In this document: in pieces, positions 1 through 9,000 of the stretch | Layout: every line of letters begins with the position of its first letter | Numbering within the stretch: the stretch's first letter is position 1 | DNA from: Chlamydiota bacterium | GTDB taxonomy: Bacteria > Chlamydiota > Chlamydiia > Chlamydiales > SM23-39 | DNA: 52,307 nucleotides | Assembly (NCBI GenBank): GCA_038534095.1 | Contig: JBCAXK010000007.1 | Coordinates: 1 to 52,307, forward strand | Direction of reading: 5' to 3' | Program-made: the position numbers

Positions 1-3000
1 GTACAAATCGATTTTTCTAGGCCGAGTTTTTTTTCTGACAGATTCAAGCATCGGCTGAATCTTATGAAATTGTGTTCGAGAGACATCGCTTGGATATTTG
101 CGTCGCATAACTACCTCTAAAAAAATTACAAAGGTAGCGTTTATACAACATTAAAGGGATTTTAAACAGGTTCTTAGAACAAAAGCGCACACCTTCCAAT
201 CTTCCGAAACCGTCACGAATAGCTCATCAGAGTCGCCAAGCTGTAAGCTCGATGTATCGGAGAACATCGAATCGATCGAACAAACAAATGACTAACGAAG
301 ATACCCCCTTTCAGCTCTCACAAGGAGTATCTTGGCCGCCCGAGAAAACCTTGTCCCCTTCCTATGCAGACAAACAAGGAATGTATTCGCAGCCTTCCAG
401 GATAAGCATTTGGCAAAAGGATTCTACATTTAGCAAGCCCTATCGCGCAGTCAGCGTTTTGAAAAAACAAAGCTTGAGCAAGGGAGAAGCTCTATCAGCG
501 CATCTATTCACTGTAGCCTCTACTGTTCCTAAACATGGGGAGAAACATGCCAACTCTTTATCTCGTAGAGGTCCACAATCAAGGGGAACAACTGCGCATC
601 CACCCAGCCCACAGTTACCTTCAACAAACCTTGGATCAATCGCTACAAGACAATCACTTTTTCCATCCCCCTTCCCCAAGCGACAAAGAGCCAATAAACG
701 CCTCTTAGACTGGACATGTGAGGGAATGGAAAGTCGAAATGTAAGACCCTTTCATGCCTCAACGCTTTCTAAATTGGGGCAAAATGCACTGGGCATGGCA
801 CAAGATACGGTGCAGATTGCTACTCGATCAAGCGATTCATCCGGTACGCCAGCTATAGCTGTTCGACAAGCCGGAGAAAACAATCCATTATTCGTCCGGA
901 AAATTGTACAAATACCAGCCATTCCACCAGCAAACCCTACAGATTCATATCCCAAAGATAACAGCCCAAAAAACTCGTCAACAAACGCTTGGATAGAATC
1001 ACTATTCAGTAAATAAGCGCTTAAATACTATTCAAACGTGTTCCCCTACTAAAAAATGTAAGATTCATACCCCCTTTCTATAAACTTAGGTCTATGGAAG
1101 GAGACAAAAGCCAGAAACAGAGGCCTCGGATCTCGATGAGCCTTTTAAGAAGAGAACAATCTACTCCATTGCTCAACTTGTGTGGCAGTAATAGTTTGGC
1201 ATTCTCCTTATCCTACTTGCCCAAATTGACTTTCAAGAGGGTAAAAACCATGCTCGTTATTGAATCAATGCCAACGAGCTCCATTTCTGCGCAGGAACAT
1301 AAAGGAGGGTGTTTGCAAGAAAAATACTACCTTTTTAGCACCGAAGAGAGTACAAAAGAAGAAATAGAAACAAGGACTCTCTTTTGGATCAGCCAAGCCG
1401 AGAAAATATCTGGGAAATGTTTGATGCGATCTCCCCTACGTATGATCGAACAAATCGGATCCTATCCTTTGGAACCGATCTATTATTCCGAAAAAAGCTC
1501 TCCGAATACCTTCCAGAAAAAAATCAGCTGAAATTGCTAGATCTTGCTACTGGAACAGCCGATCAAATCATCGCTCTTATGGATACTACCGACAAGATTG
1601 ATGAAGTAACTGGTCTAGACCCTGCGCAAAAAATGCTCGATCTTGGAGAAAAAAAACTGCGTGACAAATTTTACCACCCCAAGGTGCGTTTAGTTTGTGG
1701 AGTTTCTGAAAATCTCCCTTTTGAGGAACACGCGTTTGATGTGGTGACGATCTCGTTTGGAATTCGGAATGTCCAGTCGGTCGAAAAAACGCTCAGTGAA
1801 GCTTGCCGCGTGCTTAAGCCTGGAGGGCTTTTGATGATCTTAGAATTTTCTCTACCAGAAAAACGTTGGATCAACTATCTGTATCTGCTCTATTTGAGAA
1901 GATTGCTTCCTCTTCTAGGTGGGATCGCCTCTGGAAATTTTTCTGCGTATCGATACCTCAATAAAACCATTGAAACCTTTCCCTATGGTGAGGCTTTTTT
2001 AGAGATTTTACAAAAAAACGGCTGGAATCATCCCAAAAGAGTCCCTCTACTTTTCGGAACCATGCAGCTTTATCTTGCGCATTCCTATGATTGATTGGCT
2101 CAAACAATCGAAACAATTTCCCCAGCTCTACTGGAAACCAAGAGACACCAATGCGTGCTTGGCAGCTACAGGCAAAGGCTCTTTTGCCCCTTTTTACGTG
2201 GCTCCTTTCTCCTCAATGAACGCTCCCTTATGGAGCTCTTTCTCTCATCAGCGCACATTTGCCTTTGAGCAAGTAAGAACCGGGAAACAGGCCTCTTACG
2301 AAAAACGGCTCGTTACTCCAAGGATTCGGCAAATAAACTACTCTCCCACATTTGAGGAATGGAACCATTCTATTTTGCTCGCAAAAAAAGAGATCGAGCG
2401 GGGATCTTTCAATAAGATCGTCCTTGCAAGAAAGGTAGAAATTGTCTTAGAAAGCCCTATCGATCCATTGGAGATACTTCAGTCGAATCTTTTTGCCGCC
2501 AATCTTTATGGGTTCTATTTTTCTCCGAAAAAAGGAACCGCTTTTTTAGGAGCAAGTCCTGAGCGCTTAGTCAAACAGTGTGGAGATCTGGTGCAAACAG
2601 AGGCTCTAGCAGCAACGCGAAAACAGGGACAAGAGCAAGAGCTTTTTCAGAAAAGCAAGGAACAGAGGGAGTTTCGTTGCGTAGAAGTAGCGATTGAAAA
2701 AGCGTTACTCTCTTATGTCCGCAACCTAAAAAGCTCTAAAATAACGTTAAAAAAAAGCCACAATCTGTTCCATTTACGCAAGAAATTTCAAGGAGATCTG
2801 ATCACACAAACGTCCTTAAAAAGCCTCGTGAATAGACTCCACCCCACTCCAGCGATTCTTGGGGAAAACACTCCATATACTTGGCAGTTTTTACAAAAGC
2901 ATGAACCCTTTGAGCGGGGGCTTTATGCAGGCGTTTTTGGGCCACAAGAAGCAGAAAAAGCCGACCTTTGTGTCCCTATTCGCTCTTGCTTGATCGAGGA

Positions 3001-6000: not shown

Positions 6001-9000
6001 ATACAGCAAGCCCTTACGCCTTAGGTTACTTGGGACTTGGAGATGTATTTGTTCTCACGTTTTTTGGTCCGGTTGCCTCAGGAGTTTCTTACTTCATTCA
6101 GACAGGCTCTTTCACTGGGGAGTCATTTGTGCTCGGTTTGGGCCCCGGTCTAACGTCTTGCGCCCTTTTGGTCGTCAATAACCTGCGCGACGCGCAGGAA
6201 GACGCTCTTGTAGGAAAAAAAACGCTTGTCGTCCGCTTTGGAAAACCCTTTGGACAAATCGAATACACTCTGTGCGTCACACTGCCCTGCTTTCTCCCTA
6301 TCTTTTTTACCCCTCTATTTCTCGTTGCAGGTCTTCCGCTTTTTGTCTTTAGCTTGTCTCTAGTTTACAAAGCGCATCAAAATCCTATACTCTATAATCA
6401 GTTACTGATCAAAACGTGTTATTTTCTATGGGCTTATACTCTTGTTCTCATCCTTTGGATTATTCTTGGGTAAAGAGCCTAGATCTTCAGTATACTCGCT
6501 ATAGCCGCTCTCTTCATCCCCCTCTATTTGGGATCAAAAAGCGAGAAGGGTGCGTGGTTTCCTATGCAAAAACATCCGCAACTAAAGAGGTAGAAATTGC
6601 CCCCCTGCCAGGAAGGAGCCAGGAAACTCTTGAAGAAGCGATCGAAGATTTTCAACAAGGAATGGGAAGATTTCCCTCTTCCCGTTTTGCGTTAGAGTCG
6701 CTGACTCTTCCCCACTATCCTAAAGAGGAAATCCCCTTTTCTTTTCTCTTAACAGGCTCTGTAGAGACCATGCGAGACGATGCTCGTCTTAGTACAACGA
6801 CCTACATGAAGGTAAAAATTGGCCATTTTTCTTGGAAAGAGGCCGTTTTTTGCCTAAAAACACTCAAAAGTCTCTTTCCAGAAAAACATTGGGCACTTGA
6901 TGGCAACCGCGGCTGGACTTTTGAGGAATTTTCTGCCTTCACCCGTTCCTTTGATCCGAGCGATTTTCTCTACATCGAGGAGCCAGTATCTTCCCTATTG
7001 GCTTTGCGCAGAGTAGCCCAGACGACCCCCTTTCGTTTAGCTCTCGATGAATCTTTGTACGAAACATCGGCAAAAGAGTTATTAGGTTTCCCTTCGATCT
7101 CTACTCTTGTTGTGAAACCAACGTTGTATGGAGGGCTGACCGATCTCATAGCTTTACAAAAGCACGCTCGAGATAAAGAGATTGTATTATCGAGCTCTGT
7201 TGAATCGAAGGTGGGTCTCAAAAATATTGAGAAGCTCCGTCAAGCTCTTCAGCTCAAAACCCCATTAGGTGTAGGAACAAACCGGTTTTTTTTCTAAGAT
7301 GGAGACTCTGTACAAGCAGTTCTTACAATCTTTTCAAAGACACGCGCAAAAGGTCGCTGTCAAAAAAGGGAAAAGACTTTGGACCTATAAGGAGCTATGG
7401 AATAGCGTCGTAAAATGCCGAAAGCGCCTTTCTGCGCTAGCTTTGCCAGAGCAATCGATCATCTCCTTTGATGGCGAACCATCGTTTGATGGAATCGCTC
7501 TACTTATCGCTTGTTTATTGGAAGAACAGGTGCTTTTTCTCATCAACAGGCGCCTTCCCGATTTTTTTCTACAAAATAGACTCAAAAATCTTACGGTCGC
7601 CCTATCGATTGGAGAGAAACGCCTTGGGAAACGCCATCTATCTGCTCAGGGCTTTTTCACAAGCGTTCCTGCTGGCTCTACAATAAGAAACGCCCCTCTT
7701 CTTTTTGAAAAACCCTGCACAATGATCTTTACTTCGGGAACAACAAACTTACCAAAAATTGCCCTCCACAGCGGCTCCAATCACCTCTACAGCGCCTTAG
7801 GAGCGCAAACGCATGTCAAGCTCCTCCCGTCAAGCACCTGGTTTTTATCCCTTCCCCTCTATCATGTAGCTGGCCTAGGAATCGTTTTTCGCACTCTTCT
7901 TCATGGCGCTTCTATCCGGATTCCCGAAGAGGAAGAAGGCCTCCCTGTAGATGTAACCCATATTTCTGTTATAGAGACCACTTTTAGACGTTTATGCGCC
8001 TCTTTACAAGAACATCGGCTATCTTGCGTGATGCTCGGAGGAGGGCCGATTTCTTCTGATTTGGTCGATCTTGCAACTGCCCATCAGCTCCCTATGCTTT
8101 ACACCTATGGAATGACAGAAATGAGCTCCCATATTTGCAACGCAACAACCTTGTATAGAAAAGGGAAAGCCGTTTGTTACGGCCTTCCCCACTCTCACGC
8201 AGAAGTGCAGGTGCGAAATGGGGAGCTGTTTGTTCGAGGAAACGCCCGCTTTTTAGGGTATTATCCCCTAAAAAAACAGGAGACTTTTTGGTTTGGCACA
8301 AAAGACGCCGGAGCGATTGACGAGGAGCAAAAGGTTTGGATTCATGGAAGAAAAGATCGGCAGTTCATCTCTGGGGGAGAAAATATTCAACCAGCAGAAA
8401 TCGAAGAGGCTCTTCTTGCTTGCCCAGGCGTTGAATTTGCGCAAGTGTTCCCCAAACCAGATCCTACCTTTGGCATGTGCGCTGTAGCTATGGTCCGCAT
8501 GAGCCTACCTTTTGATGAAATTGCGCTCAAAAATTCCCTCAAAAAAAGACTTCCTCGCTATAAAATTCCAAAAAAAATTTTCTTAGAAACGGGGTCGATT
8601 TCTTCTTTACAAGGAAAATTTTTTTGAGGTACATTCGTGATAAAATCGATTTGTCGAAAATGCGATTTCTAATCTATAATCACCTAGGATGGGGCGTATT
8701 ATTCGTTATCATTTTATAGGTGTAAAAAGGTAATTTTGGTCTATAATTATGCGTTTATTTTCTACAGAAACTTCTTCCTTTATCTTGCACAAAAAAGTAC
8801 TCAGTGGTGAAAGATCGCTCCGAGAGCAAGGTCTTCCCATCTCAGCCAATGTGCGTAGCGTATTTTCCGAAGATCTATCCCCAACTTTTTATCTCAAAAA
8901 ATCTCTACATCTCTATCAACAAGGGCTAAGAAAAGATGAAGTCAAACTTCTTTTTTTATCCATCAAATGTTTGAAAAAATCTGCTACCAGTTTGCCTCAA

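Follow-up and report, generated by a model that had tools for sequence, protein, structure and literature searches.

A menaquinone operon in an uncultured chlamydial clade that lost its shikimate genes, and its probable supply with chorismate from outside

The genome of the uncultured marine chlamydia studied here (G000, a draft of 1.615 Mb in 87 contigs, completeness 96.63, contamination 0.32) keeps a classical menaquinone operon, and none of the seven shikimate steps, DAHP synthase through chorismate synthase, was found in it. The best reading of these sequences is that a quinone precursor would come from outside the cell. Retention of MenF points to chorismate as that precursor, most likely taken from the host. 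We consider it probable, at roughly 60%, that the operon is fed by outside chorismate after an ancestral deletion of the aro genes and that its upper enzymes, MenF, MenD and MenC, are still functional.

The window, that is, the whole stretch of 52,307 nucleotides that was analysed, carries the men operon on the plus strand at 1384-8627, in the order menG-menF-menD-menB-menA-menC-menE and with intact reading frames. An earlier note on this DNA had described a complete operon, MenC-like and MenE-like genes included, and this observation was confirmed. The features are as follows.

1384..2094, plus strand: menG (ubiE), demethylmenaquinone methyltransferase, the last step; NF001244 at 226.9 bits (cut-off 216), PF01209.
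2075..3121, plus strand: menF, isochorismate synthase; TIGR00543 at 227.6 bits (cut-off 224.75).
3106..4629, plus strand: menD, SEPHCHC synthase, a ThDP enzyme with isochorismate and 2-oxoglutarate as substrates; TIGR00173 at 319.3 bits (cut-off 244.2).
4630..4793, no strand: spacer of 164 bp at the usual place of menH; a 75-aa reading frame overlapping the 3' end of menD (4545-4772) matches no family.
4794..5609, plus strand: menB, DHNA-CoA synthase; NF005637 at 494.5 bits (cut-off 380).
5613..6473, plus strand: menA, DHNA polyprenyltransferase; TIGR00751 at 154.6 bits (cut-off 102.15), PF01040.
6416..7297, plus strand: menC, predicted divergent o-succinylbenzoate synthase; models for this enzyme rank first but below cut-off (116.7 against 236 bits, 98.9 against 130.55).
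7299..8627, plus strand: menE, predicted o-succinylbenzoate-CoA ligase; TIGR01923 ranks first but stays under its cut-off (285.8 against 330.15 bits); AMP-binding domains.
8749..10719, plus strand: TPR protein with TPR Pfam matches, conserved directly 3' of menE throughout the family and used as a marker of synteny and phylogeny.

Members of the family share the arrangement menG-F-D-(H)-B-A-C-E with the TPR gene behind it. Elsewhere in the window, 25 of the 37 reading frames outside the operon are without an NCBIfam match. MenF is the single PF00425 match in G000, and so the sole chorismate-binding enzyme of the genome; its 348 aa fall within the family range of 298-412 aa, and in the alignment it retains the equivalents of K190, E240, E284, R387 and E416 of E. 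coli MenF, which we take to have catalytic roles. MenD keeps the equivalents of R33, E55, R107, N117, Q118, S391, R395, R413, I418, D442 and N469, and that of F475 was read solely from an alignment to the E. coli protein; its ThDP, metal and arginine residues are thereby retained. Its residue S32, a serine in 29 of 30 relatives, is phenylalanine in G000; this position neighbours the isochorismate-binding arginine, a role described in passages of PMC2914249. The divergent MenC matches PF13378 and PF21508, has the operon position conserved among relatives and retains the equivalents of K131, K133, D161, E190, D213 and K235. Among the lower enzymes, MenB is 70-77% identical to its counterparts in relatives and MenG is 63% identical to the copy of the congener G078, while for MenE synteny is conserved and the congener has a full-length orthologue (48% identical).

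Users of the quinone are also encoded. Subunits I and II of cytochrome bd and subunit I of a haem-copper oxidase were found, in agreement with the previously reported cytochrome bd and bo3-type oxidase. The futalosine route, said earlier to be missing, is indeed so as far as MqnA is concerned, with no PF02621 match in G000 or in G078.

The congener and a member of a sister genus (G020), likewise uncultured Chlamydiota, form a single clade with G000 (support 1.0 in a tree of 1850 columns and 20 genomes), and the TPR protein of G000 is 64% identical to that of G078 and 60% to that of G020, against 35-41% for other relatives. The labels of the sequencing runs, 'marine metagenome' and 'plastisphere metagenome', say nothing more specific about the source.

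The earlier note had reported no shikimate gene after six-frame scans for aroC and aroB. With the scans widened to other steps and to profiles built from the lineage itself, this claim became firmer. There was no match in G000 to PF01264 (AroC), PF01761 (AroB), PF08501 (the N-terminal domain of AroE) or PF01474, and only noise of at most 16.4 bits to PF01202, PF01220 and PF01487. HMMs made from the AroA, AroK, AroC, AroB and AroDE proteins of relatives returned only MurA (41.8 bits) and one noise match of 15.4 bits. As stated before, the single PF00275 match is MurA and the single PF00793 match is KdsA, neither of them a shikimate enzyme. The family counts for AroC were reproduced exactly (93 of 103 genomes, G000 counted, and 59 of the 63 of good quality), and in a phylum-wide sample AroC is present in 381 of 400 genomes.

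Synteny shows where the genes were. In G080, G069, G077 and G023 the cluster aroA-aroK-aroC-aroB-aroDE lies between lysS and priA; in G000 it is absent from the corresponding gap of about 830 bp, inside a contig of 34.5 kb, and in the separately assembled G078 the gap, also inside a contig, is 282 bp. The absence of the shikimate genes in G000 is thus a real deletion with a scar common to the congener, and it predates the split of the two genomes, whose LysS proteins are 65% identical. In G020 none of AroC, AroA and AroB was found (three of three tested), yet the men operon is there in full; its lysS sits on a 4.7-kb contig on which a scar is not visible. In other chlamydial families, G370, G317 and G385 have MenD while AroA, AroB and AroC were not found in them; therefore, the state of men genes without shikimate genes may recur.

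An artefact of assembly or binning, with the aro genes hidden in gaps among the 87 contigs or with a foreign men contig, could be suspected in a draft genome, all the more since the five aro genes are clustered in relatives and one gap could hide them all; moreover, gaps of this kind do exist in the family, where six genomes (G037, G079, G059, G221, G293 and G381) have AroA or AroB but gave no match to AroC. However, an intact contig spans the site with lysS and priA adjacent, the same is seen in the congener, and the aro genes are missing from three independent assemblies of the clade. Completeness and contamination also speak against it, and the men contig of G000 agrees with the lysS contig in how its identity to G078 and G020 is patterned. 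This explanation is hardly credible and largely refuted already.

The chorismate-using half of the operon still looks selected. MenF, MenD and MenC are full-length in G000 and in G020, and all the catalytic residues checked are retained, except for the S32F change of MenD in G000. In a relative-rate test on G000 and G020, the distances of the upper enzymes, scaled to the mean of those for MenB, MenA and MenG, are 1.44 for MenF, 1.36 for MenD and 1.51 for MenC, the medians for pairs in which both genomes have shikimate genes being 1.47, 1.39 and 1.56. The upper enzymes of G000 retain conserved columns (0.87-0.88) about as well as MenE does (0.84), although the Men proteins of G000 as a whole (0.84-0.94) keep slightly fewer than the leave-one-out medians of 0.93-0.98. 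A second strain, about 1.3% divergent, has contigs that cover the initial 12 kb of the window; its men operon is intact, and the sole two indels between the strains fall outside the men genes. Among the 40 of 162 differences listed, MenF has 11 SNPs (6 synonymous, 5 non-synonymous), menG has 5 synonymous and 1 non-synonymous, and the neighbouring orf254 has 2 and 16. Intact residues, with no acceleration relative to menB, menA and menG, argue for continued function, and continued function of menF, menD and menC would in turn call for an outside supply of chorismate.

The congener, however, took another course. It retains menG, menB, menA and menE, each full-length, whereas menF, menD and menC are cleanly deleted, with 140 bp and 69 bp remaining where the two deletions lie; searches of that genome gave neither MenD nor MenC nor a match to PF00425, which agrees with the earlier statement that it lacks a MenF match. 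With only menE-menB-menA-menG left, G078 must enter the pathway at o-succinylbenzoate, which shows that this genus can do without the upper half and that a later intermediate can serve. As a rival reading, the operon of G000 might be decaying from the top after the loss of the shikimate genes, its menF, menD and menC being useless relics not yet deleted and outside o-succinylbenzoate or DHNA being the point of entry. The gene set of G078, the S32F change in MenD and the loss of MenH in all three members of the clade fit such decay, and scavenging of later precursors is known for DHNA in Porphyromonas pasteri (passages of PMC9704088) and for 4-hydroxybenzoate in Rickettsia (passages of PMC5615194). 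Nevertheless, the upper genes are intact with the usual relative rate across the deep split between G000 and G020 (MenD 47% identical), they are intact in the second strain too, and after a deletion older than the split from G078, relics should by now hold stops or frameshifts. We regard decay as rather unlikely.

The absence of MenH, which the earlier note had claimed, was borne out by the 164-bp spacer between menD and menB and by a genome-wide search, in which an HMM built from relatives gave only generic alpha/beta-hydrolase matches of at most 20 bits, with no remnant or copy. In 22 of 28 loci of relatives an intact MenH-like frame separates menD from menB, but it is missing from the locus in the shikimate-positive relatives G023, G065 and G033 as well, so that its absence is no sign of decay.

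The supply of a still functional operon with outside chorismate may be pictured as follows. The common ancestor of G000 and its congener, and probably of the sister genus, would have deleted aroA-aroK-aroC-aroB-aroDE, while MenF, MenD and MenC remained functional. Chorismate from the host cell or a co-resident organism would be imported and converted by MenF to isochorismate, to which MenD would add 2-oxoglutarate; pyruvate might then be lost without MenH, either spontaneously or by the action of another hydrolase. MenC would form o-succinylbenzoate, and MenE, MenB, MenA and MenG would complete menaquinone, which would serve cytochrome bd and the haem-copper quinol oxidase. This is the reading of the earlier note in its main part; it is partly supported, by the aro deletion and the signs of selection on menF, menD and menC, and complicated by the lack of MenH and by the later point of entry in G078.

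Two variants dispense with imported chorismate. It could be made internally by unrelated, unrecognised enzymes, or MenF, MenD and MenC could act on another imported cyclohexadiene, for instance isochorismate supplied by a salicylate- or phylloquinone-producing host; in plants, isochorismate exits plastids. Nothing direct favours either, although unannotated reading frames are plentiful (the 25 of 37 outside the operon). An internal source would need seven steps replaced simultaneously by unrecognised enzymes in a 1.6-Mb genome, and import of isochorismate would make MenF superfluous, although the enzyme is conserved and has every catalytic residue. Both variants are very improbable.

As to how outside chorismate might enter the cell, a putative transporter of the MHS family within the MFS (contig C50:5576-6946; PF07690 and PF00083) is a candidate importer, though only a lead. 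It scores 254.5 bits against the MHS model TIGR00883, below the cut-off of 443.45, and has partial similarity to ProP (171 bits), PRK10406 (158), TcuC (156) and ShiA (144); reference members of the family, ShiA, KgtP and ProP, are metabolite:H+ symporters. The transporter is present in G000 and G020 and was not found in G078, and in the relative G022 its gene adjoins aroC. Chorismate makers include some cnidarians besides many protists, fungi and algae, and dependence on chorismate is a weak clue to the host. A bolder proposal, that the clade uses two ring precursors exported by the plastids of phylloquinone-making eukaryotes (chorismate in G000 and G020, o-succinylbenzoate in G078), lives in algal or other plastid-bearing hosts and has in the MHS transporter the first bacterial chorismate importer, is decidedly unlikely.

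Chlamydiae with reduced genomes normally retain the shikimate pathway, and in many of them quinone synthesis seems to be nearly its sole use. Its loss together with selected chorismate-consuming enzymes would imply a new host dependency and a flux of chorismate from host to symbiont, of which our literature search found no description for any bacterium. With G078 included, the clade forms a natural series in which one may ask what intermediates of the pathway are within reach of an intracellular bacterium, by what means transporters may be found, and how the search for hosts of this uncultured marine lineage can be confined to chorismate makers.

In Algichlamydia australiensis, coral-associated Simkaniaceae and Endochlamydia hydrae, both the shikimate and the men pathways are complete, according to passages of PMC11317633, PMC11070183 and PMC13229535. 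G000 has the same men enzymes as in this usual chlamydial arrangement, within an otherwise very reduced metabolism, but its aro cluster is deleted and menH is lost. Among bacteria that live on a later intermediate, group B Streptococcus is a DHNA scavenger. Porphyromonas pasteri is another case, its menaquinone respiration being fed by DHNA from other organisms as described in passages of PMC9704088. In such scavengers the upstream men genes are absent and DHNA is imported, whereas G000 has all men steps but MenH and lacks a chorismate supply of its own. Rickettsia, obligate intracellular and without a shikimate pathway, makes ubiquinone from imported 4-hydroxybenzoate, for which a host origin is inferred (passages of PMC5615194). 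On that description it resembles G000 in keeping a quinone pathway without shikimate genes, but it has no chorismate-using UbiC and enters after chorismate, unlike G000 with its chorismate-using MenF; G078 is thus its closer analogue. In the plant and algal phylloquinone route, PHYLLO is a plastid fusion of MenF, D, C and H, and o-succinylbenzoate moves on to peroxisomes. This compound is mobile between compartments and is said to pass readily through membranes (passages of PMC6189191). There the likeness is the mobile o-succinylbenzoate, since G078 retains exactly the steps that follow it; the route belongs to a eukaryotic host, and a link to G000 is speculation. Downstream steps kept and supply lost is the gene pattern of scavenging, found in G000 and G020 at the level of chorismate and in G078 at that of o-succinylbenzoate.

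The genome to which the window belongs (G000; 1.615 Mb in 87 contigs, completeness 96.63, contamination 0.32) carries at 1384-8627 seven tightly packed ORFs, all in one direction, which NCBIfam and Pfam matches identify as the men operon that the earlier note had claimed. These and a further small ORF are:

UbiE/MenG: NF001244, 226.9 bits (cut-off 216)
MenF: TIGR00543, 227.6 bits (cut-off 224.75)
MenD, 3106-4629: TIGR00173, 319.3 bits (cut-off 244.2)
75-aa ORF, 4545-4772: without family match
MenB: NF005637, 494.5 bits
MenA: TIGR00751, 154.6 bits (cut-off 102.15)
MenC, divergent: top matches are o-succinylbenzoate synthases, with scores under their cut-offs
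MenE-like ligase: TIGR01923, 285.8 bits, under the cut-off of 330.15

MenF is the sole enzyme of the chorismate-binding fold in the G000 genome. A close strain, about 1.3% divergent, reads C instead of T at position 1384, the first base of the TTG taken as the menG start, and the true start may differ.

Six-frame Pfam scans of the whole G000 genome gave no match for chorismate synthase, dehydroquinate synthase, the N-terminal domain of shikimate dehydrogenase or class II DAHP synthase, and only noise (at most 16.4 bits) for shikimate kinase and both types of dehydroquinase. The single match of the EPSP-synthase fold was rejected as AroA, being MurA, and the single DAHP_synth_1 match was rejected as a DAHP synthase, being KdsA. 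HMMs built from the AroA, AroK, AroC, AroB and AroDE of relatives recovered in G000 only MurA (41.8 bits) and one noise match of 15.4 bits, and MqnA of the futalosine route was not found in this genome. The absence of the shikimate pathway, for which only aroC and aroB had previously been scanned in six frames, thus holds with Pfam scans of further steps and with lineage HMMs.

The place from which the genes were lost can be seen. In G080, G069, G077 and G023 an aroA-aroK-aroC-aroB-aroDE cluster lies between lysS and priA, the identities of the genes having been confirmed for G080. In G000, priA (contig C11, 11632-13863) and lysS (14691-16322) are about 830 bp apart within a 34.5-kb contig, and the gap holds no aro remnant, a sensitive tblastn search with the relatives' aro proteins giving chance-level matches only. 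In the independently assembled congener G078, whose LysS is 65% identical to that of G000, the two genes are 282 bp apart. As lysS and priA stand close together in both genomes, the aro loss is a genuine deletion and older than the split between them. In G020, from the sister genus, lysS is on a 4.7-kb contig and the scar site lies outside view.

In the family, AroC is present in 93 of 103 genomes (59 of the 63 of good quality), reproducing the counts reported before; AroA is likewise present in 93/103, and MenD scores over its cut-off in 70/103. AroC is missing from ten, namely G000, G078, G020, G028, G032, G036, G037, G059, G079 and G081. Among them, G028, G032 and G036 also lack AroA and MenD and are not near G000 (LysS at 55% in G028 and 54% in G036, with no LysS match in G032), while G020 lacks AroC, AroA and AroB, yet has a full men operon. 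In a tree of TPR, MenB, MenA, MenG and MenE (1850 columns, 20 genomes) G020 is sister to G000 plus G078 with support 1.0, on a long stem of 0.53 substitutions per site. In a wider survey of the phylum (401 genomes, completeness 85% or more), 268 genomes had MenD, and AroC was found in 381 of the 400 scorable; eight genomes had MenD and no AroC, and four were left after checks for AroA and AroB, namely G000, G370, G317 and G385. The last three (88-92% complete, from three other chlamydial families) have MenD and no AroA, AroB or AroC match. Each may be a separate instance of this state or may have a single assembly gap, into which a clustered aro locus could fall. Six genomes with MenD and no AroC (G037, G079, G059, G221, G293, G381) were rejected as assembly gaps, since AroA or AroB is present (AroA in G037 and G079, AroB in G059), and G067, the genome of locus L070, was rejected as an AroC-less case because it has AroC.

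The congener has a syntenic but shorter operon, menG-menB-menA-menE-TPR (locus L037, contig C13 of G078, locus coordinates 13197-17081), in which all genes are full length (identity to G000: MenG 63%, MenB 77%, MenA 61%, MenE 48%, TPR 64%). Clean deletions have left 140 bp at the site of menF and menD and 69 bp at that of menC, and neither MenD nor a chorismate-binding enzyme nor MenC was found anywhere in the G078 genome; the only weak match of the MenC-type Pfam model, at 22.3 bits, was set aside, the 466-aa frame in which it lies being taken to be enolase. Because menF, menD and menC are gone while menE, menB, menA and menG are kept, G078 retains precisely the steps from o-succinylbenzoate on, and its pathway can begin only there. 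The main rival to chorismate entry in G000 is that the upper half of its operon is a relic and that the pathway is entered at o-succinylbenzoate. As described in PMC6189191, o-succinylbenzoate and DHNA pass membranes readily, and o-succinylbenzoate shifts between plant compartments. We consider the relic reading the less likely of the two, on the following grounds.

Firstly, G000, G020 and the close strain all carry menF, menD and menC as full-length ORFs. Over the first 12 kb of the window, which the contigs of the close strain span, that strain shows just two indels, one of 12 nt in frame in orf254 and one of 1 nt at 4787 in the spacer. Alignment to the solved E. coli enzymes indicated that the equivalents of K190, E240, E284, R387 and E416 of MenF, of R33, E55, R107, N117, Q118, S391, R395, R413, I418, D442 and N469 of MenD, and of K131, K133, D161, E190, D213 and K235 of MenC, residues which we take to be catalytic or binding, are conserved in G000 and G020 and in practically every relative; for F475 of MenD only the alignment to the E. 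coli chain shows this. The roles of the MenD arginines are supported by PMC2914249. The sole exception is the equivalent of S32 of E. coli MenD (ORF residue 30), adjoining an isochorismate-binding arginine, which is F in G000 and S in 29 of 30 relatives. Columns with 90% or more conservation in the shikimate-positive relatives are retained in G000 at fractions of 0.87 (MenF), 0.88 (MenD) and 0.88 (MenC) in the upper enzymes and 0.84 (MenE), 0.92 (MenB), 0.94 (MenA) and 0.92 (MenG) in the lower ones, the leave-one-out medians being 0.93-0.98. The clade as a whole is somewhat divergent, the upper half not being singled out. Moreover, the G000-G020 protein distances relative to the mean of MenB, MenA and MenG are 1.44 (MenF), 1.36 (MenD) and 1.51 (MenC), against medians of 1.47, 1.39 and 1.56 for pairs of genomes that are both shikimate-positive.

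Substitutions between the strains were counted in menG, in menF and in two ORFs upstream, among 40 of the 162 differences. These small numbers comprise 6 synonymous and 5 non-synonymous changes in menF and 5 and 1 in menG; orf254 (252-1016, 254 aa, no family match) has 2 and 16, besides its 12-nt in-frame deletion, and either encodes a rapidly evolving protein, which might act in host interaction, or is no real gene in that frame. Taken together, intact ORFs, residues, conserved columns, relative rates and strain counts fit functional MenF, MenD and MenC better than relics.

The lack of MenH might be held against a working upper pathway. Relatives carry a MenH-like gene between menD and menB (TIGR03695, 156-205 bits), with an intact frame in 22 of 28 men loci. 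The caveat that MenH had not been found is borne out, as no MenH-like gene exists anywhere in the G000 genome and the menD-menB spacer holds no remnant. However, the frame is missing at the men locus not only of G020 and G078 but also of the shikimate-positive G023, G065, G033 and G101, for which reason we do not regard the loss as showing that the upper pathway is dead. SEPHCHC sheds pyruvate spontaneously at mildly basic pH; alternatively, one of the alpha/beta hydrolases encoded in the window (16793-17650, 38637-39605) may convert it to SHCHC.

Imported chorismate would be converted to isochorismate by MenF, MenD would add 2-oxoglutarate, pyruvate would be eliminated without MenH, MenC would form o-succinylbenzoate, and MenE, MenB, MenA and MenG would complete menaquinone. 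The quinone would serve the cytochrome bd and the haem-copper quinol oxidase, both encoded in G000. Of this scheme, the genes and their conservation are observed; the uptake, the supplier and the importer we infer. Of the chorismate scavenging proposed in the earlier note, feeding of the quinone pathway from outside is well supported by the comparison of genomes; chorismate as the entry point is the best reading for G000, unproven and with a probability of roughly 0.6; the clue to the host is weak.

In a search for an importer, 48 of the 73 G000 ORFs with at least six predicted hydrophobic segments were scanned; most were sugar, amino-acid or ion carriers or efflux-type MFS proteins, with a GltP-type dicarboxylate/glutamate symporter. 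One is an MFS protein of the metabolite:H+ symporter (MHS) type (contig C50, 5576-6946; locus L161) resembling ProP, KgtP-like, TcuC and ShiA families, all under cut-off. No protein of solved structure matches it at E up to 1e-10, and its Atlas names are generic only (MFS, alpha-ketoglutarate or ProP). Among the 103 family genomes, orthologues (35-43% identity) occur only in G020 and in five shikimate-positive genomes (G030, G070, G010, G071, G022), and none was found in G078. The transporter is found in both shikimate-less genomes that have menF; the G020 copy is partial, at a contig end, with the neighbouring gene arranged as in G000. In G022 it lies (locus L172, 9683-10900) 420 bp upstream of aroC (11321-12523), and in G070 and G071 it is 6 and 9 kb from aroC. 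It could be a carrier of shikimate-pathway carboxylates and equally a 2-oxoglutarate permease, a lead and not a finding, and since orthologues also occur in five shikimate-positive genomes the correlation across genomes is uninformative for a chorismate importer.

As to the organism, G000 encodes an FHIPEP protein of type III secretion, along with other TLC-family transporters besides two transporters in the window:

36971-38464: NTP/NDP exchange transporter (TIGR00769, 443 bits)
43717-45126: GadC-like glutamate/GABA-type antiporter, under cut-off

Near-identical DNA is present in a run labelled 'marine metagenome', possibly the source run, and in a run of a second study labelled 'plastisphere metagenome'. 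A search with the MenD protein alone found no relative; an alignment search with the conserved TPR gene downstream of the operon did, its nearest public relatives all being MAGs titled Chlamydiae, Chlamydiota or Parachlamydiales. Elsewhere in the window, a single 744-aa ORF (13546-15780) fuses a YihY/BrkB-type membrane domain to a class I mannose-6-phosphate isomerase domain, and 14 ORFs in a row (18176-34570; 119-642 aa) go unmatched in NCBIfam at E up to 1e-8.

Our full-text literature search retrieved no report of a bacterium importing chorismate, nor of a chlamydia with men genes and without the shikimate pathway; PMC11317633, PMC11070183, PMC11809670 and PMC13229535 describe chlamydiae in which both pathways are complete. 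Scavenging of quinone precursors is already known at later steps: Rickettsia enters at 4-hydroxybenzoate (PMC5615194) and Porphyromonas pasteri at DHNA (PMC9704088), whereas for G000 we propose entry at chorismate. G000 would thus represent a new variant of quinone-precursor scavenging, whose known analogues join the pathway further down.
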